Positions 4,808 to 43,500 of a DNA stretch of 64,000 bases are shown here, piece after piece. The notes below the pieces were generated by a model that saw nothing but the letters and a program-made list of their open reading frames with translations, made no database searches and was not told the DNA's origin. The position numbers and the translations under genes are program-made. This stretch comes from Candidatus Binataceae bacterium (GTDB lineage Bacteria; Desulfobacterota; Binatia; Binatales; Binataceae), in NCBI GenBank assembly GCA_963789715.1, contig CAWBLQ010000006.1, forward strand, positions 431,007 to 495,006, given 5' to 3'. Each line of letters starts with the position of its first letter. Positions within the stretch are counted from its first letter, which is position 1.

Positions 4808-7275
4808 GCTCCAGGCACCGCCTGCATTAGATAGACGAGAGTAAAGATGATGATCCACACGACGTCGACGAAATGCCAGTAAAGTCCCGCGAGCTCGACT
4901 GACAGCGCGCGCGACTGGCCGAGCTTGCCGGTCATAGCGGCCGCCAACAGCACCGACAGCCAGATCACCCCGATCGCGACGTGGCCACCGTGAAACCCGA
5001 CCAGCACGAAGAACGACTGCGAGAACAGGTTGGTCGTGAGCCCCATGCCCTCGCGGTAGAAGCTGGTGAACTCGTAAACCTGCCCACACAGAAAAATCAG
5101 TCCGAACGTGACCGTGCCGGCGAGCCAGATTCGCTCCCATCGCTTGTCGCCGCGCTGTGTGGCCGCGAGCGCCAGCACCATCAGCAGCGAACTCATCAGC
5201 AGGATGAAGGTGCTGAACGAGGTCAGCGGGATGTTGAGAATTTTCGGTCCCGGCCCTGAGACGCTGCGCGATTTGTAAACGATGAAGGTCGAGATCAAGC
5301 TCGCGAAGAACACGCACTCTGAGCCGATGAACGACCACACGCCAATTTTGCGCACGTCGATTCCGCCCGACGAAGGCGCGTGCTCCGGATCGTGCGACGC
5401 CTCGCCAAAGTCCGCGTACTCGAATCCCATCCCGATGACCGACAAGACCACGACCGCCGCGCCGATGAAAACGATGCGATACCATTCGATGATGAGACCG
5501 AGGCCCATCATTCCCGCGCCAAGACTCATCACCAGCGGGAAGATCGAAGGCGCCGGCATGTGGATGTCCGCAACGGAGACCGGTTCGCTGGGCGGTTGCG
5601 ACGGCGCCTGCCCCGACATGTAAGCGGCGACGCCGCGCGAGCCGGCGCGCCGGTACTTCAGAATCCACCACGCGTCGCGGCCGCGAATTTGCGGGATCGT
5701 CGCGAAGTTGTACGCCGGCGGCGGCGACGGCGTGGACCATTCGAGGCTGCGGCCGTCCCATGGATCGGCGAGCGCGCGCTCCCCGCTGATGAGACTCTTG
5801 AAAATGTTGATGTAGAAAAGCAGGAACGCGATGCCGAGAATGAACGCGCCGATCGTCTCGAGCTGGTTGATACGCGTCCAGCCCATATCCGCGCCGTAGG
5901 TGTAGGTGCGCCGCGGCATCCCCCACATCCCGAGAATATGCATCGGGAAAAACGTGAGGTTGAATCCGATCACCGTCAGCCAGAACTGCCACTTGCCCAG
6001 CCGCTCGCCGAGCATCCGTCCGCTGATCTTCGGCCACCAGTAATAGAACGCCGACAGGATCGCGAACATCACGCCGCCGAACAGCACGTAGTGAAAGTGC
6101 GCGACGACGAAGTACGAATCGGTCTGCTGGAGATCAATCGGCGCCGATGCGTGCATGATTCCGCTGAGGCCGCCGATCGTGAACTCGAGCACCATCCCGA
6201 GCGCGAAGTAGAGTGCGGTCGTCATGCGCAGCGAGCCGCCCCAGACCGTTGCGATCCAGCTGAAAACTTTCACGCCGGTGGGAATCGCGATAAGCATCGA
6301 TGTGATCGCAAACGCCGAGTCTGCGACCGGGCCCATTCCGGTCGCGAACATGTGATGTCCCCACACGCCGTACGACAGGAACGCGATCAGGCAGATCGAG
6401 TACGCCATCATCGGATAGCCGAATAGCGGCTTGCGCGAGAACGTGGGAATGACTTCCGAGATGATCCCAAAGGCCGGCAGCGCCATGATGTACACTTCGG
6501 GATGACCGAACAACCAGAACAGATGCTGCCACAGGATCGGCGTGGCGCCCGCCGACGCGACGTAAAAGTGGGTGTCGAAGAAACGATCGAAGAGCAGGAA
6601 GATCAGTCCGATGGTGAGCGCCGGAAACGCGATCAGAATCAGGATTGACGTTACCATCAGCGCCCAGATGAACATCGGCATGCGCATGTACGTCATGCCC
6701 GGCGCGCGCATCGCGATGATCGTAGTCAGGAAGTTGAGGCCGGTGAGAACCGTCGAAGTGCCCGACACCAGGAGCCCGATCACCCACCAATCGATCGCAA
6801 GGCCTGGCGTGAAGTAGCGCTCGGTCAGGTTCGCATAGCCGAACCAGCCCGCATCGGGAAGGCCGCCGCGAATCCAGCCGAGATGCAGCAGGATGCCCGC
6901 AACCAGCGCCAGCCAGAAGCTCAATGCATTGAGCCGCGGGAACGCGACGTCGCGCGCGCCTATCTGCAGCGGGATAAGGAAGTTACCGAAAAATCCGAGC
7001 AGCAGCGGCATGACGACGAGGAAGATCATCGTCGTCCCATGCATCGTGAAAAACGCGTTGTAGGTCGCCGCCGACAGCGCGTGATTGTCGGGCCGCCACA
7101 GCTGTACGCGAATCGCCATCGCCTCGAGTCCGCCGAACGCCATGAAGAACAGCGCGCTGGCGAGGTACATGACGGCGACGCGCTTGTGATCGATCGTCAT
7201 CAGCCATCCGACTATTCCGCCACCTTCGAGGTAGCTCGGCTGATGCACTGGGATTGGTTTCGGTTGCGCAGCCAT
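4804..7275 (-). CDS. ctaD: Cytochrome c oxidase subunit I fused to subunit III (caa3-type CtaD-CtaE fusion)
   Basis: 823 aa. Haem-copper oxidase subunit I core motifs (WFFGHPEVYI, HHMF, VAHFHYVL), then a C-terminal seven-helix subunit-III-like extension, as in Thermus/Rhodothermus caa3. Confidence 0.9.
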   Translation of the reverse strand: MAAQPKPIPVHQPSYLEGGGIVGWLMTIDHKRVAVMYLASALFFMAFGGLEAMAIRVQLWRPDNHALSAATYNAFFTMHGTTMIFLVVMPLLLGFFGNFLIPLQIGARDVAFPRLNALSFWLALVAGILLHLGWIRGGLPDAGWFGYANLTERYFTPGLAIDWWVIGLLVSGTSTVLTGLNFLTTIIAMRAPGMTYMRMPMFIWALMVTSILILIAFPALTIGLIFLLFDRFFDTHFYVASAGATPILWQHLFWLFGHPEVYIMALPAFGIISEVIPTFSRKPLFGYPMMAYSICLIAFLSYGVWGHHMFATGMGPVADSAFAITSMLIAIPTGVKVFSWIATVWGGSLRMTTALYFALGMVLEFTIGGLSGIMHASAPIDLQQTDSYFVVAHFHYVLFGGVMFAILSAFYYWWPKISGRMLGERLGKWQFWLTVIGFNLTFFPMHILGMWGMPRRTYTYGADMGWTRINQLETIGAFILGIAFLLFYINIFKSLISGERALADPWDGRSLEWSTPSPPPAYNFATIPQIRGRDAWWILKYRRAGSRGVAAYMSGQAPSQPPSEPVSVADIHMPAPSIFPLVMSLGAGMMGLGLIIEWYRIVFIGAAVVVLSVIGMGFEYADFGEASHDPEHAPSSGGIDVRKIGVWSFIGSECVFFASLISTFIVYKSRSVSGPGPKILNIPLTSFSTFILLMSSLLMVLALAATQRGDKRWERIWLAGTVTFGLIFLCGQVYEFTSFYREGMGLTTNLFSQSFFVLVGFHGGHVAIGVIWLSVLLAAAMTGKLGQSRALSVELAGLYWHFVDVVWIIIFTLVYLMQAVPGA

Positions 7276-16839: not shown

Positions 16840-17486
16840 AATATTTTATCGATACCGCCGACGTCGCCGAGATTCGCGAGGCCGCCAGTTGGGGACTCAT
16901 CGACGGCGTCACCACCAATCCATCGTTGATGGCGAAGACTGGGCGCCCGTATCACGACGTGCTGAAAGAGATTTGCGAAATCGTCGACGGACCCGTCAGC
17001 GCCGAAGTTGTCGCAACAGAAGCCTCCGCGATGATCGAGGAGGGCGAGAAGCTCGCCAAGCTGCACAGGAACATCGTGGTCAAGTGCCCGATGATCGTCG
17101 AGGGCCTCAAGGCCACTCACGCGCTCGCCAAGCGCGGCATCCGCGTCAACGTCACGCTCATCTTTACTCCGCTGCAGGCGCTGGCGGCGGCCAAGGTCGG
17201 CGCCTCGTTCCTGTCGCCGTTCATCGGACGCCTCGACGACATCGGACAGGACGGCTTCCAGATCGTCGAGGAGATGGTGCAGATACTGTCGAACTACGAC
17301 TATCCCGCCGAGGTGCTGGTCGCGTCGGTGCGCAGCACGACTCATCTGCTGCGCGCAGCCGCTATAGGCGCGGACATCGCGACGGTCCCGTTCGCGGTGC
17401 TGAAGCAGACCCTGCACCACCCGCTGACAGACCTGGGCCTGGAGCGCTTCCTGGCAGACTGGCGCAAAACCAACCAAAAGATCTGA
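16836..17486 (+). CDS. tal: Short-type transaldolase / fructose-6-phosphate aldolase family protein
   Basis: 216 aa. [10 protein letters not shown]…TTNPSL…VKCPMI… pattern of MipB/TalC-type transaldolases. Its ATG overlaps the folK stop (ATGA). Confidence 0.85.
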
Positions 17487-17850
17487 CGGATCTTCGCCTC
17501 TCTCTGTCAGGGACCGACGCCAGTCTTCGAGCGGCGGGTAAGGGTCCAAATTCCAGGTTCTTCGCATCGCGAGGAATAAAGGGCCGCAACGCAACAGTCC
17601 GGATCTCTGCCTCTCTCTATCTGTCAGCTGTCAGGGAGAGGATGAAGGTGAGGGTCTTGTGCAGCGCGCGATTTTTTCCGCGCGCGATTCAGGATTCCGC
17701 TCCGGCTACCTCGCCCGTTCTTTTCACGGGAGAGGCAACCGGCCCGCGTCGCGGCCGGCAGGTGAGGGTTCCGCGACCGCAGCACAAAAGCACGACTGCT
17801 CACTGATCACTTTATTTTAATGCGGCACCCACCGTGGGTTCCGCACCTCC

Positions 17851-17915
17851 TTGGGCAGGGGTGACCCCTGCACCCGGTGACAGGATGAAGATGCGGGACT
17901 TTCGTCCCTGTTCGA
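17851..17915 (+). repeat. R1 palindromic REP-like repeat, copy 1 (GCAGGGGTGACCCCTGC hairpin + GGGACTTTCGTCCC hairpin)
   Basis: About 85% identical to copies at 23940-24005 (same orientation) and 43441-43500 (reverse orientation). All three copies are intergenic. Confidence 0.7.
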
Positions 17916-17953
17916 AGGGGGTTGGGGGAATTGCCTCGCCCGCTTCTTACGGT

Positions 17954-18832
17954 TCAGCGGTGCGAAACTAGGTGCCAGCGTGCACCGTCGAACCGGATTT
18001 CCCCGTGACGCTTCAAATACTGTTGGGCGTTACGAACGTAGTGTTTCCACTTCTTGCCGAAGTGCACCCCGTCAATGACGCGATCGGTGGAATCGTCACA
18101 TAGGTCCGGGTGGAGTAACTGAATTAATGGGTGAAGGTCCACAGTTCGCAGAGGACCCTTTGCGAGCAGGAATCTGAGCGTTTCCGAGAAGATGGCGTGG
18201 GTCGTTTTTCCCCTCGCCCGGTGACGCAACAGTCGAAGATTAGTCGCTTGCAGTTTCCTCTCAAATGCGCGCCGTGCTCGGTCGCGTATGGGTCTTTCTG
18301 CGCGCTGGAAAAGTGATTTGAGGTCTTCCACCTCCGCCGAGAGTGCCGCTACATCGTCAACGGAGACCTTTGCACCTAGCGAAGCGTAGCTTTCGAAGTC
18401 CGATCTGACCTCCCTAACGATACCTTCTTCCGTCAAGGCGACCCCGTATTCGACGTTCCCGCGCAAGCCAGGCTCCGTCAGGTTACCAGAGGTTACAATT
18501 GCCATCTTGGAGTCTGCCACGTAAACCTTGGCGTGAACGCTAGGCAAGTGCGTAAGCTCGAACCTGGGTAAGCTTCGGCCGAAATCGGCTATTGCTCCAA
18601 GGTCCATGGAGCCAGCGAGCGTGCTCTCGGGTCTGAGATCCGTAATGAGATCTACGCGCACCGAAGCACGGCGCGCCCGTTCGTCAAGCTGCTTAAGTAT
18701 CCGCTTCGTGGCAGAGCGCTTAACAAAGGGGCTGACGATGAGCAGACGTTCGTCGGCCAGAGAAATGAGCCTCTCAAGCGTTTCAGGCCAAGGACTCCGA
18801 ACGATAGATACCAGTCGCGCGTCCGGCGTCAC
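17954..18832 (-). CDS. PLD-family (single HKD motif) nuclease fused to a C-terminal Mrr_N-like winged-helix domain; restriction-type nuclease candidate
   Basis: HKD motif HAKVYVADSKMAIVTSGNLT in the N-terminal half. The C-terminal GVHFGKKWKHYVRNAQQYLKRHGEIRFDGARWHLV resembles the Mrr N-terminal winged helix. The gene has lower GC and is flanked by repeats. Confidence 0.6.
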   Translation of the reverse strand: MTPDARLVSIVRSPWPETLERLISLADERLLIVSPFVKRSATKRILKQLDERARRASVRVDLITDLRPESTLAGSMDLGAIADFGRSLPRFELTHLPSVHAKVYVADSKMAIVTSGNLTEPGLRGNVEYGVALTEEGIVREVRSDFESYASLGAKVSVDDVAALSAEVEDLKSLFQRAERPIRDRARRAFERKLQATNLRLLRHRARGKTTHAIFSETLRFLLAKGPLRTVDLHPLIQLLHPDLCDDSTDRVIDGVHFGKKWKHYVRNAQQYLKRHGEIRFDGARWHLVSHR

Positions 18833-19234
18833 GCGGGAGTCCAGACTACTCGCTGATGCTCGTCACCTCGGCAACCGCCGCCTTTAGTTCTCGCGTATTC
18901 GAGGCCCGCATCTGCGTCGCAATGGAAGCGCTCACAGGCATCGCATCGCTCGATGCAACGGCTGCCTATCTTGTTTGGTGGACCCGCGAGGATTCCCCTC
19001 ACTCCCGAGTACACCGTCCCGGGTTTCTGGCATTCGCAGCGCACCCGTCAAATCCTCACTTCAATCTCGCGGAACGGATCGTCGCGTTGACAAGTCTCCG
19101 CCGATCGCGTTCAGCGCGGCCATGTACTCCAGCGAATCACCGAGAATAATCTGGCCTCGTTTTGTTTTATGAAATGACGACATCTCTGCCCACTTTAGCA
19201 GGCGTTAGGTCCGGCGCGAACCACGTCGAAGGCG

Positions 19235-19305
19235 CACAGAGAATAACAGCAACTCGCGCGTTCGCACATCTTGTGGTTGGTTTTGCCAGTTTGCCAGTAA
19301 GCGTT
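19235..19305 (-). repeat. R2 repeat (about 65 bp, core GGCAGAACGAGGAACGCTTACTGGCA…CCAACC.GAAGATGTGAGG), reverse-oriented copy
   Basis: Reverse complement matches forward copies at 19670-19735 and 20575-20645, and a partial copy at 21486-21540. Confidence 0.65.
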
Positions 19306-19339
19306 CCTCGTTCTGCCGAATAGCTGCCGCCTGACGCAG

Positions 19340-19640
19340 GAAGGGATTACCAACTCCAATGACAACCGTTGTCATCAGGATCTGCGACGATGTTCGTATG
19401 ATTCTCTCACCGACTCCTGCCGATACACTCACATCGCAACACCCGAACTCCAGCCAATTCGCGGATTTGCTCACCGCCGATTTCACTCGTGCCCGTCCTC
19501 ACAGATTGATCCGCCGGCCCATTCCCGCTCACGCGCCCGCCGCCCACTCGATGGAAGAGATCGAAGAGAAAGTAAAAATGTCAAAAAACCCTCCGATCGC
19601 GGTTTCAGAACAATGTTTGTTTGCTCGTTCGCCGCTTTGG
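19340..19640. repeat. Element A: about 280-bp diverged repeat with perfect 7-1-7 palindrome TGACAAC-C-GTTGTCA at one end and a conserved GAAGARATCGAAGARAAAGTAAA block at the other
   Basis: Homologous to 39310-39620 (element B). The palindrome and the 23-nt distal block are near-identical, while the middle has diverged. Flanked here by inverted R2 copies. Confidence 0.6.
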
Positions 19641-19669
19641 TTCGAATCGTGGGCGTTTGGGAACATGTG

Positions 19670-19735
19670 GCGGAACGAGGAACGCTTACTGGCAGGCTGG
19701 CGCACACCAACCGGAAGATGTGAAGTTTAGACGGT
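19670..19735 (+). repeat. R2 repeat, forward copy abutting the methyltransferase start
   Basis: See the 19235-19305 entry. Forms an inverted pair with that copy around element A, and a direct pair with the 20575-20645 copy around the MTase gene. Confidence 0.65.
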
Positions 19736-20333
19736 GTTGCTTGTGGCGACTAACGGGTGGCGCGAGGTTTGGGATCACTTCAGGGGACGCGGCGCGTATC
19801 CGCATCAGTTCGCCTTCCTGCTGCTCAACCCGCTGCGCAGCCTGATCTTCTCGCCGCGCGAGCTGGTCGCGCGGCTTCATTTGACCGCGAACTCGCGGGT
19901 GCTGGAGCTTGGTCCGGGTCCTGGATTCTTCAGCGTTCAGATTGCACGCCGTATTCCCGGCGGTCATCTGTGCCTGGCGGACCTGCAGCGTGAGATGCTC
20001 GACAAGGCACGCGCGCGAATCAGGCGGGCGGGCGTCTCCAACGTCAGTTTCGCCCAGGCCAGCGCGAGCGCGCTGCCCTTTGCGCGCGAGGTCTTTGACG
20101 CCGCCTTTCTGGTCACGGTGCTGGGCGAGGTTCCCGATGCCGCGGCCTGCGTCGTGCAGTTGCGCGACGTACTCCGCCGCGGCGGTCTGTTGTCGATTAC
20201 CGAGCTCGCGGGCGATCCCGACGCGATGACCGAAGGCGATATCGCGGCGCTAGCCAAAGCCGCGAATCTCGAACACTCAGAGACGTTCACGAAGCGCTTC
20301 GGCTTCACGATCAACTTCAGAAAAGCGGACTGA
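19734..20333 (+). CDS. Class I SAM-dependent methyltransferase (type 11/UbiE-like small-molecule MTase)
   Basis: Motif I VLELGPGPGFFS and post-I acidic residue (LADL). The only in-frame early start is GTG/TTG at about 19734-19743. Confidence 0.65.
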   Translation: MLLVATNGWREVWDHFRGRGAYPHQFAFLLLNPLRSLIFSPRELVARLHLTANSRVLELGPGPGFFSVQIARRIPGGHLCLADLQREMLDKARARIRRAGVSNVSFAQASASALPFAREVFDAAFLVTVLGEVPDAAACVVQLRDVLRRGGLLSITELAGDPDAMTEGDIAALAKAANLEHSETFTKRFGFTINFRKAD

Positions 20334-20574
20334 ATTGAGCGGCGCCCTTTCGTCGCGCGATTGCAGAACCCTCACCTAACCCTTCGGCACTCGGGGCAGG
20401 CTCTCTCCCGTCGTTGCCGTTCCTTCCGATAAGGCAGATCTCATTCGGATGCAGCGAGGCGAAACCGGAACCGGCGGCGTTTGCGCGCCGCTGTCCGAGA
20501 TCCTTCTTTGCGCTCGCGTTGCTCGCTTCGGTCAGGATGACAAGCGTGGGCCCTTCCTTCGTCCGCGGTAAGCT

Positions 20575-20645
20575 ACCCGGCAGAACGAGGAACGCTTACT
20601 GGCAGACTCGCGTAAAGCCCAACCCGAAGATGTGAGGAACCTAAC
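20575..20645 (+). repeat. R2 repeat, forward copy, followed by a CTAACC-rich tail and GC-rich hairpin
   Basis: Matches the other R2 copies. Its tail (GGAACCTAACCTCTAACCCC…) is shared with the partial copy at 21486-21540. Confidence 0.6.
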
Positions 20646-20853
20646 CTCTAACCCCTTTTTTCGGGCCCGCGTGGGAAAGGGGAACCGGAGAGGAGAAAGA
20701 TTCCTGACAAAGGGCGGCAAAACAAGTCAGCATTTTCCTGCTATCAATTCGGCGGTCGAGCGTCTTATCCGACTGGTCTCAAATGGCGAGTTTGTTATTC
20801 TTGTTGAATGACATCCCTATTCGATGTGGGAAAACGGAAACTCCGGAGAATTC

Positions 20854-21485: not shown

Positions 21486-21540
21486 CGAGCCCGCCTGACT
21501 CTTCGCCCGAAGATATGAGGAACCTAACCCCTAACCCCTT
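21486..21540 (+). repeat. Partial R2 repeat tail (CGCCCGAAGATATGAGGAACCTAACCCCTAACCCC) followed by GC hairpins
   Basis: Matches the 3' part of the R2 copy at 20615-20660. Followed by the CCCTTCCCGCGCGGGAAGGG palindrome. Confidence 0.5.
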
Positions 21541-21625
21541 CCCGCGCGGGAAGGGGGACCGAATAGAAGCGATTCGCCTTTCCGCAGGGGAAGGGGGACC
21601 GGAGGACTACTTCGATGACAGGATG

Positions 21626-23493: not shown

Positions 23494-23940
23494 ATGAGTA
23501 CCGTGGTCTCCACAATCGCCGCCGCCGATCCGCGTCCGTTTCCCGACGTTATCCTGCGCAGCCAGTTTTTCGAGATGATGGGCACGCGAGCGCTGTCGAG
23601 CGAGCAGCGGCTGATGCTCGCAGTGCTGGCCGACGCGATCAACATCGTGCAGGAATTCGGCGGCTCGTCGAGCCTGCGCAAACGCAACTCGTTCAACGAC
23701 GCGTGGAACTGGTTCTTCGCTAAGGGCGTGTCGTGTCCGCTGTCGTTTCTGAGCGTGTGCGACGCGCTGGGGATCGACGCGCAGGGCTTGCGATGGCGCC
23801 TGTCGGAACTCGTCGCAGGCCGCGGCGGCACTCCGCTGCGGCTGCGGCTGAAGGAAGCGAGTCGGATGCAGCGGCTCACGGTGAATCGAGTGCGGCGGCG
23901 CGATCCGCGCAAGACGCATCGCGGCACTCGGGCGCGGTAG
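23494..23940 (+). CDS. Hypothetical protein (148 aa), first gene of a three-gene unknown cluster
   Basis: Strong RBS GGGAGGGAGGAAG before the ATG. Host-like codon usage. No domain recognised. Confidence 0.5.
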   Translation: MSTVVSTIAAADPRPFPDVILRSQFFEMMGTRALSSEQRLMLAVLADAINIVQEFGGSSSLRKRNSFNDAWNWFFAKGVSCPLSFLSVCDALGIDAQGLRWRLSELVAGRGGTPLRLRLKEASRMQRLTVNRVRRRDPRKTHRGTRAR

Positions 23941-24005
23941 GCAGGGGTGACCCCTGCACCCAGTTACTAAGACAAGGATGCGGGACTTCGTCCCTGTTAG
24001 AACTC
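23940..24005 (+). repeat. R1 palindromic REP-like repeat, copy 2
   Basis: See the 17851-17915 entry. Lies between gene 1 and gene 2 of the SprT-like cluster. Confidence 0.7.
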
Positions 24006-36559: not shown

Positions 36560-37754
<1,195 letters not shown>

Positions 37755-38084
37755 CCGAAGCGAGCAACGCGAGCGGAGGGAAGGATCTCGGACAGCTTCG
37801 CGCCAGCGAAGCCGGTACCGGTTTTGAAATCGCGCAGCGCTCCTTGCTGAGATAGCCGCGCAAGCCTCCCATTCTCATCGGATGCGGCAACCCAAAACCG
37901 CAACCGGCTTTGCTTACTACCCCGCACGAATTGCCCGTAGCGTAATCAGTAAGATTTCTTGTTGGACTCAGTCCAAACCCTTCAGCACTCCTAGCATGTG
38001 GCTTCTAGACTCTTCTTCTGTTTGGTCAAACGCTCGGCTGATTAAGCGCAAGACTAAAATTCCGGCCGATTTTTCGAGAACTTT

Positions 38085-39227: not shown

Positions 39228-39309
39228 TCACGGAACCGGAACCGGCTTTCGCGTCGCGCGGAGCTGTCCGAGGTCCTTCCTCGACTCGCGATGCTCGCGC
39301 CGTCAGGAT

Positions 39310-39620
39310 GACGCGTGCTGACAACCGTTGTCATCAGAGATCTGGCATAATACTCAGCATGCTTGGTTCACCTGCTTCCGCCAACCCACTTCTCCCCGAT
39401 CAAACGATCCCAACTCTTCATTGGCCCCAACTTCAGTTTCACCCGTCGCCGGATCGCTCGCTCTGCCGATACTTTCCTCCCATCACGCGCACCGACCCGA
39501 CGGAAGAAATCGAAGAAAAAGTAAACTATCGACCAGAACCGTTCCCGTCATTTTAAAACAGTGTTTTTTCATGCCCTCGCAACCGCCGCTGCGCCGTGCC
39601 ACTCTGTGCGCTTGCCCTTT
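39310..39620. repeat. Element B: homolog of element A with the identical TGACAACCGTTGTCA palindrome and a GAAGAAATCGAAGAAAAAGTAAA block
   Basis: See the 19340-19640 entry. Lacks the flanking R2 repeats. Lies between the truncated mrr and dedA. Confidence 0.6.
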
Positions 39621-43408: not shown

Positions 43409-43440
43409 CAGGGCTTCCCTGCCCCCATTTTTCTAACAGG

Positions 43441-43500
43441 GCGTAAGCCCGCATCCCTTCTTCTCCTGATACCGGGTGCAGGGGTCACCCCTGCCGCGGG
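43441..43500 (-). repeat. R1 palindromic REP-like repeat, copy 3 (reverse orientation)
   Basis: Reverse complement matches copies 1 and 2. Lies between the GH13 gene and pepN. Confidence 0.7.

Follow-up and report, generated by a model that had tools for sequence, protein, structure and literature searches.

What does a compositionally deviant nuclease gene beside the 3′ end of a transaldolase gene act upon, and in what company does it travel? The question is raised by a 64,000-nucleotide stretch of DNA from Candidatus Binataceae bacterium (assembly GCA_963789715.1, contig CAWBLQ010000006.1, positions 431,007 to 495,006), here called the window. The gene encodes 292 amino acids and joins a phospholipase D (PLD) nuclease domain to a winged helix (wH); an initial annotation had regarded it as a stand-alone restriction or defence nuclease of unnamed architecture. 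The first epithet does not strictly hold, and the second is out of date. Proteins of this layout were described in 2024 as 'PLD-wH' fusion endonucleases (PMC11037411), a class to which the gene most likely belongs, and it is accompanied by a translationally coupled partner and by the remains of a specific restriction-modification (R-M) operon. That it is a horizontally acquired DNA nuclease of restriction or defence type, lying in the wreck of such an operon, is well supported. A modification-dependent role, as first suggested, is the best-supported reading of the gene, and we place about even confidence in the more definite proposal that the nuclease is antagonistic to PvuII-type N4-methylcytosine (m4C) methylation, by analogy with the complementary DpnI/DpnII cassettes. 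What is new is the partner gene, the finding that an operon made of M.PvuII-like methyltransferase and MTaX1-HNH endonuclease genes is consistently replaced, and the m4C hypothesis that follows.

The nuclease gene occupies positions 17954..18832 on the minus strand and opens with a GTG codon. Its open reading frame (ORF) is as initially annotated, with a single HKD motif in the N-terminal half (HAKVYVADSKMAIVTSGNLT, residues 100–119, positions 18476..18535) and the C-terminal segment GVHFGKKWKHYVRNAQQYLKRHGEIRFDGARWHLV at residues 255–289. The single-HKD PLD domain covers residues 8–150 (18383..18811, minus strand). Of the two Pfam families expected by the initial annotation, PLDc_2 is found on residues 21–148 (E=5.4e-15, 55.8 bits against a cutoff of 27) and in 49 of 49 relatives, and Mrr_N is not found. 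H100, K102, D107 and N117 are invariant in the 49-sequence alignment, and the catalytic H, K, D and N are retained in 73 of the 74 full-length relatives listed, across all phyla; the exception, locus L069, reads 'HGK' and has a garbled C-terminus. The AlphaFold2 (AF2) model of the protein has a mean predicted local distance difference test score (pLDDT) of 92.1, and structural comparison assigns the PLD domain a Nuc-like fold.

The domain is of nuclease type, as had been claimed. It most closely resembles Nuc, NucT, SauUSI, Zucchini, R.NgoAVII and BfiI, together with the DrmC/MkoB/ZacB models. In PADLOC and NCBIfam the highest-scoring models are the PLD domains of DrmC, MkoB and ZacB, none of which reaches its family threshold (DrmC_I scores 68.7 bits against an equivalog cutoff of 133), and Pfam RE_NgoFVII reaches 14.2 bits against 23.8. 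DrmC, the top match, is a component of DISARM; it has no wH, and no DrmA, DrmB or helicase gene stands in any locus examined. Joint Genome Institute names such as 'phosphatidylserine/phosphatidylglycerophosphate/cardiolipin synthase-like enzyme' might suggest a lipid-metabolising PLD enzyme, a phospholipase or a cardiolipin or phosphatidylserine synthase. However, the protein has one HKD motif and not two, the AF2 model has no membrane segment, the lipid-enzyme models ClsB and bac_cardiolipin reach 15.5 and 11.4 bits where 281 and 290 would be required, the structures it most resembles are those of nucleases, and a DNA-binding wH forms the C-terminus. No locus shows the lipid-metabolism operon context that would have spoken for such a function, and the lipid-enzyme reading is effectively refuted.

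As each chain contributes one HKD motif, dimerisation would be needed, by analogy with other enzymes of this kind. A 49-residue helix between the two domains (residues 158–206, 18215..18361, minus strand), placed by the AF2 secondary structure, is a candidate dimerisation element.

The C-terminal domain (residues 211–288, 17969..18202, minus strand) is the most conserved part of the protein. It had been taken to follow the Mrr N-terminal pattern; the winged-helix fold is borne out by the AF2 model and structural comparison, and the assignment to a Pfam family is not. Mrr_N (PF14338) does not match the window protein at E≤10 and matches 0 of 49 close relatives. Among the C-terminal domains of 40 diverse relatives, four give sub-threshold Mrr_N matches (best E=5.2e-4) and six give weak matches to DUF7669 (best 7e-4), these being the only families matched by more than one of the 40; no mention of DUF7669 was found in papers. 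EcoKMrr, in which an Mrr_N winged helix is combined with a PD-QxK nuclease, likewise fuses a winged-helix reader to a nuclease, with the domain order reversed and another nuclease fold. In hhalign its winged helix is colinear over about 75 columns, with the shared pattern K(N/H)..R.A...LKR.G.I...G.W.L, at a probability of only 6–7%: 6.3% over 75 columns against a 36-sequence Mrr_N alignment of E. coli Mrr homologs, and 7.4% against E. coli Mrr alone. Similarity to the DpnI winged helix, with its N6-methyladenine (m6A)/GATC-reading motif, is undetectable. When the wH by itself served as the phmmer query in an exhaustive search of 1.84 billion representatives, 269 proteins were returned; the top 150 all have the PLD-wH layout or are fragments thereof, and the winged helix is therefore family-specific.

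Composition and distribution support the claim of horizontal acquisition. The PLD gene was said to be of lower GC content than its neighbours, and its value is 0.567 against 0.618 for the whole window; at third codon positions (GC3) it is 0.62, compared with 0.72–0.85 in the neighbouring transaldolase, HPPK, aminotransferase and GcpE genes. The GC3 of its partner gene is foreign as well. In total 1748 homologs, about 290 amino acids at full length, were collected, and 322 relatives occur among approximately 186,000 species genomes, distributed patchily over Binatia, Acidobacteriota, Chloroflexota, Planctomycetota, Nitrospirota, Bacteroidota and others, in unrelated genomic contexts. A phage origin was considered and rejected, as viral contigs yielded no relative and the single weak PHROG match is to a family of unknown function. 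In one locus, L071 (5685-7001), an insertion of about 1.3 kb breaks the gene when compared with L039, leaving a disrupted nuclease copy.

Directly upstream of the PLD gene lies a small gene (18829..19044, minus strand) for a 71-amino-acid protein with four cysteines. Its stop codon overlaps the PLD start by 4 nucleotides (GTGA), and the two, translationally coupled, make up a two-gene cassette some 1.1 kb long. The source assembly does not list the small gene, its exact protein is absent from the protein collection searched, and the initial annotation had likewise passed over it: it is a small conserved gene missed by automatic annotation. Its family comprises 37 clusters, nearly all of about 71 residues, and four cysteines (C3, C5, C34 and C37, arranged as CxC...CDxC) are invariant, as are E32, D35, D43 and W68. 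The protein probably binds zinc. Scans with Pfam, PADLOC, NCBIfam and PHROG recognise no known fold or family in it. Of 88 loci, 43 have this gene immediately 5′ of the PLD gene; an overlap of the type xTGA is kept in 21 of 41 loci, and distant relatives are devoid of the small gene. Both cassette genes are under purifying selection, with ratios of nonsynonymous to synonymous substitution (dN/dS) of 0.2–0.34 for the small gene, 0.12–0.17 for the PLD gene and 0.06–0.10 for the wH domain, where the constraint is strongest. The idea that the small protein is a displaced piece of the adjacent methyltransferase was discarded, since the intact methyltransferase has no CxC...CxxC region. The partner may act as a regulator or inhibitor, and it may be needed for controlled expression of the nuclease.

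A small upstream gene with a 4-nucleotide overlap is also the classic layout of a type II toxin-antitoxin (TA) module, and the locus could be explained as a TA or abortive-infection unit in which PLD-wH is a non-specific toxin, the four-cysteine protein its antitoxin or inhibitor, and the R-M wreck a mere landing site. An inhibitor role would suit a protein with no known fold or family, and the published PLD-wH genes were cloned without a partner and poorly expressed, one of them (Aba4572I) being toxic even in Dam− cells (PMC11037411). Nevertheless, about half of the family has no small gene and still keeps PLD-wH intact and conserved, and in the Dehalococcoidia an unrelated substitute is found. 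The explanation also leaves unaccounted for the repeated association with one methyltransferase family in two operon types, described below, and the strongest constraint falls on the DNA-reading wH, as would be more readily expected of an enzyme with a specific target than of a non-specific toxin. We therefore consider a TA module unlikely, although it is the most plausible of the competing explanations.

The substitute in the Dehalococcoidia (L073, L074, L075, L079, L081 and L084; approximately 6495-7010) is a small protein encoded immediately upstream of PLD-wH, with the motif VKMVKC..EEP.PPCNPDELENWC...ARPVQQHVGD and a tandem duplicate in L074. No match to it was obtained in Pfam, PADLOC or PHROG.

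The company kept by the cassette is most telling in other genomes. All ORFs around 81 PLD-wH loci were clustered, a neighbourhood comparison of the kind that the initial annotation had proposed as a check: a DNA methyltransferase fragment lies upstream in 32 of the 81 loci and an HNH gene downstream in 26, and around half of the loci show no remnants of either. The fragments of the methyltransferase (M) span only the N-terminal half, corresponding to positions 1–108 of 221 in N6_N4_Mtase and 6–172 of 330 in PADLOC MTase_II. The HNH protein, MTaX1 plus HNH_2, matches models of Type II restriction endonucleases (R). A metagenome scan with the HNH protein as query recovered 80 loci. In 56 of these a full-length M is followed by a full-length R with no cassette, as in the intact reference L090, where M (339 amino acids) and R (331 amino acids) overlap by 20 nucleotides. 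In seven others the cassette is present, inverted in two of them, and M and R are both truncated.

Altogether, in about 50 loci from several phyla and in either orientation, the cassette has taken the place of a region that runs from the 3′ part of M across the M-R junction into the 5′ end of R, which inactivates both genes. Measured against full-length references, the cassette alleles retain M from residue 1 to residues 30–170 of 339, and R from residues 44–278 to residue 331; the part of M that binds S-adenosylmethionine (AdoMet) and the start of R are never kept. The breakpoints in M fall into at least eight classes, which follow the PLD clades. No intact M adjoins the PLD gene among the cassette loci examined, and in L058, where alone the adjacent M is almost complete, an in-frame stop precedes its SPPF motif. 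Compared with M.PvuII, the N4-cytosine methyltransferase for CAGCTG, the intact M shows around 60% identity along its full length (1BOO, E=2.7e-108).

The window contains a much-reduced version of this arrangement. Upstream of the small gene lies a stub of an M.PvuII-like N4-cytosine methyltransferase gene, unnoticed initially, in a 40-codon ORF at 19061..19183 on the minus strand. Recognisable M sequence is limited to residues 1–31 of 339, at 19091-19183, with 58% identity to the M of L090 (E=1.3e-6) and E=5e-6 against that of L008 (tblastn). No R remnant was found in the window. The copy is thus eroded, with 31 codons of M and no R, and forms a small foreign islet by the transaldolase 3′ end. 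The DNA from the M stub through the small gene to the PLD gene (17940..19204) forms a block 79–85% identical to L009, L010 and L030 (blastn), the closest relatives, which are found in unrelated genomic contexts. Whichever two loci are compared, homology does not extend beyond the unit formed by the remaining 5′ arm of M (M′), the small gene, the PLD gene and the remaining 3′ arm of R (′R). This unit is mobile between genomes and has a different genomic context in each.

A second type of operon with the same M family also hosts the PLD gene, and its flanks are again truncated. It consists of a methyltransferase of the M.PvuII family, a protein of about 230 amino acids and one of about 380 ('C17'), at L021 2272-4131, L058 6625-9693, L080 5940-8567 and L023 1-1793, with no small gene. 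The two accompanying proteins have no Pfam or PADLOC matches, and the whole may be an undescribed R-M-like system.

A placement so specific invites the idea of a selfish, homing-like cassette, whose wH would read a sequence within intact M.PvuII-like operons and whose nuclease would break it, whereupon repair would copy the cassette in. The link with the operon would then be one of target choice and not of methylation. It is in this operon family in particular that the cassette is found, in either orientation and with the middle of the presumed target missing, and the unit is mobile between genomes; moreover, the M′ and ′R arms are 83–87% identical to intact operons elsewhere. The junctions do not conform to true homing, since they are imprecise, with the many classes of M breakpoint noted above and R starts anywhere from residue 44 to 278. 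They also follow the PLD clades, as expected of inheritance followed by erosion and not of repeated targeted insertion, and many family members stand in unrelated contexts. We know of no homing endonuclease of the PLD family, and regard this mechanism as quite improbable.

The frequent methyltransferase neighbours could also be those of a conventional, modification-blocked restriction endonuclease resembling BfiI or NgoAVII, with the protecting methyltransferase encoded elsewhere in the genome. PLD-family Type II enzymes do exist, these two among them, and weak Pfam RE_NgoFVII matches are seen in 16 of 49 members (best 6e-5). Against this stands the state of the methyltransferases: the adjacent M genes of the associated family all carry a truncation or a stop codon, and no intact DNA methyltransferase was found near the PLD gene in the window, where the product of 19734-20333 is UbiE-like. 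In addition, BfiI and R.NgoAVII use a B3-like domain, cleave unmethylated sites and have active methyltransferase partners, whereas PLD-wH has a winged helix and a truncated M. A second intact N6_N4 methyltransferase, of another PADLOC type (PDLC03215, 321 amino acids), does occur in L007/L008, convergent to the R remnant (L008 2784-3749, minus strand), but this is a feature of one Terriglobia genome only. A conventional enzyme is, accordingly, the least likely of the three nuclease-based alternatives.

The preferred reading is that the cassette would constitute a Type IV module, the antagonistic and complementary allele of the R-M system it replaced, as DpnI is to DpnII. Two chains would dimerise so that their two HKD motifs make one active site, as in Nuc and BfiI. 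The winged helix would recognise the methyl mark of the displaced methyltransferase family, m4C, plausibly in CAGCTG, and the PLD domain would cut nearby in a metal-independent manner, via a covalent phospho-histidine intermediate. Homologous replacement through the M′ and ′R arms could be the means by which the unit spreads. In its most specific form this proposal envisages a dedicated m4C-dependent enzyme (for CAGm4CTG or a related site), alleles that are mutually exclusive with the M.PvuII-like/MTaX1-HNH operon, and spread via the two arms; we put this full version forward tentatively, as somewhat more doubtful than the general antagonism.

In Streptococcus pneumoniae DpnI and DpnII are complementary cassettes at one locus (PMC3812788, PMC3573125). 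As proposed here, a methyl-dependent nuclease is opposed to a methylating R-M system, the two are mutually exclusive, and the nuclease (DpnI) has a wH reader. The differences are also considerable. DpnI is a PD-(D/E)XK enzyme that reads m6A in GATC, whereas the present enzyme is of PLD type and the implied mark is m4C. Exchange in pneumococcus is thought to proceed via recombination in shared flanks (PMC3812788, PMC3573125), with whole cassettes swapped between conserved flanks; here the breakpoints lie inside M and R, and remnants travel along. Furthermore, DpnI and DpnII share a single chromosomal locus, and no such shared locus was found here for both alleles. PcaRCI and the methyl-dependent HNH enzyme PcaRCII offer another precedent, in which a mobile R-M system clashes with a Type IV enzyme directed at its mark (Birkholz et al. 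2022, PMC8989522). There the Type IV gene is silenced epigenetically, which settles the conflict, whereas in the present loci it is the R-M genes that have been physically destroyed and the nuclease that persists.

Among PLD nucleases, Nuc of S. Typhimurium has a single HKD motif like PLD-wH but no DNA-reading domain. SauUSI is a Type IV enzyme as well, but it is an ATP-dependent PLD-helicase-DUF3427 protein of about 950 amino acids, compared with 292 and no NTPase in the window protein; it reads 5-methylcytosine and 5-hydroxymethylcytosine and does not cut m4C (PMC3874153). In the tables of the same 2013 review only McrBC acts on m4C, and weakly (PMC3874153).

How does this proposal relate to what has been published on the class? 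Helbrecht et al. (2024, Front Microbiol) reported 27 PLD-wH fusion endonucleases as candidate m6A-dependent Type IV enzymes, including Aba4572I from an Anaerolineaceae bacterium and CbaI from a Chloroflexi bacterium (PMC11037411). The window family is likely that of Aba4572I and CbaI, as judged from description, phyla and neighbour types. In both, a chain of about 290 residues begins with a PLD nuclease and ends with a wH, their source phyla are represented here (Anaerolineae, Chloroflexota), and their neighbours are an amino-methyltransferase and a 'restriction endonuclease', the latter matching an Mrr_cat protein in L041, L068 and L078. Helbrecht and colleagues flagged the adjacent amino-methyltransferase as a possible conflict, noted frame-shifted methyltransferases beside PD-(D/E)XK-wH enzymes, and found CbaI adjoining the 'restriction endonuclease' (PMC11037411). 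The wH of Aba4572I and CbaI was recognised by its similarity to that of DpnI and assigned to Gm6ATC, whereas the family here has no DpnI similarity and is associated with an m4C methyltransferase. The small cysteine-rich partner, the truncation of the neighbouring M and the replacement of an R-M operon do not feature in that report (PMC11037411). The substrate hypothesis accordingly shifts from a guessed Dam-type m6A to m4C placed by M.PvuII-like enzymes. A lead from the same paper towards PvuI and CGATCG was not retained: the M here is PvuII-like and not PvuI-like, and the lead is unmentioned in the Type II review.

The Mrr_cat protein, of 460–500 amino acids with the Mrr_cat (PD-(D/E)xK) domain at its C-terminus, is encoded directly upstream of PLD-wH, sometimes overlapping it, in loci of the Chloroflexota type (L078 2357-3814, L068 4968-6359, L041 1722-3215, L027 and L015); this position fits the description of the CbaI neighbour. 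It has no PADLOC match. The possibility that this protein ('C9') was a core component of the parent R-M system was dismissed, as it lies upstream of intact M-R in only 1 of 56 loci (L091).

Several points weigh against an m4C-directed antagonist. Purification of the published PLD-wH proteins failed, and Aba4572I showed toxicity even in the absence of Dam methylation, an exception to the Dam-dependent toxicity observed for wH fusions generally (PMC11037411). A dead M beside a dead R is also expected from neutral decay of a disrupted R-M operon, and consequently the observation that M is never intact is no proof of incompatibility. The many M breakpoints could represent few ancestral events with later deletions, which would weaken the statistical argument. 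The loci with neither M nor R remnants, roughly half of the total, are mostly from Chloroflexota and have no small gene either. Finally, no convincing pair of a cassette allele and an intact allele at the same chromosomal position with homologous outer flanks was found. Within the window, CAGCTG is present at 12 sites against 15.2±3.5 expected and is not depleted, a count that is uninformative either way.

Were the antagonism to hold, the cassette would parallel DpnI/DpnII widely in the environment and encode the first nuclease dedicated to reading m4C, and it would provide a second natural pair of complementary methylating and methyl-dependent alleles, spread across soil and sediment phyla. 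One defence gene would then physically replace the R-M system whose mark it targets. The wH would be an m4C-reading domain, a useful epigenetic tool, since m4C is hard to detect enzymatically. Otherwise, the gene would be an ordinary member of a described, uncharacterised nuclease class.

The repeats that led the gene to be called repeat-flanked are real, and their meaning is a different one: they are copies of the transaldolase 3′ end together with elements dispersed throughout the genome. The authentic transaldolase 3′ end lies at 17441..17501 on the plus strand, with its stop codon at 17484-17486. Three copies of the last 55 or so nucleotides of the gene, stop included, are present within 3.2 kb downstream and nowhere else in the window: a degenerate inverted, attachment site (att)-like copy at 19265..19345 (minus strand), a degenerate direct copy with stop codon at 19669..19723 (plus strand) and a second degenerate direct copy at 20579..20635 (plus strand). 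The 22-nucleotide inverted pair 17464-17485/19265-19286 corresponds to the true end and its degenerate inverted copy. The copies look like att-type duplications left by successive integrations at the gene 3′ end; no integrase remains. These duplications account for the bracketing of the PLD gene.

Between two of the copies lies a gene for a 199-amino-acid class I S-adenosylmethionine-dependent methyltransferase (19734-20333, plus strand), which matches Methyltransf_11/25, is UbiE-like with a native-like GC3 of 0.78, and is not a DNA methyltransferase by Pfam. A scan for sigma-70-like promoters returned none in 17400-19800 and is uninformative for this organism.

A flank that appears permuted was noted among the relatives: sequence downstream of R in one intact allele (L122 4819-5471) is located upstream of M′ in some cassette alleles (L136 512-1225, L062 5941-6217 and L024 8366-8513), which may point to a flanking element common to these alleles or to a carrier of the R-M unit that is circular or permuted. 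The remaining repeats of the window are intergenic elements of 60–90 nucleotides that resemble repetitive extragenic palindromic (REP) sequences or miniature inverted-repeat transposable elements (MITE) and belong to several families dispersed genome-wide. One family occurs at 17854-17916, just downstream of the PLD gene, and again at 23940-24002 and 43431-43495; another at 20462-20548, 37751-37824 and 39231-39317; a third at 20623-20683 and 21506-21558. A related element at 17628-17720 recurs around the cassette in L004, L005 and L010.

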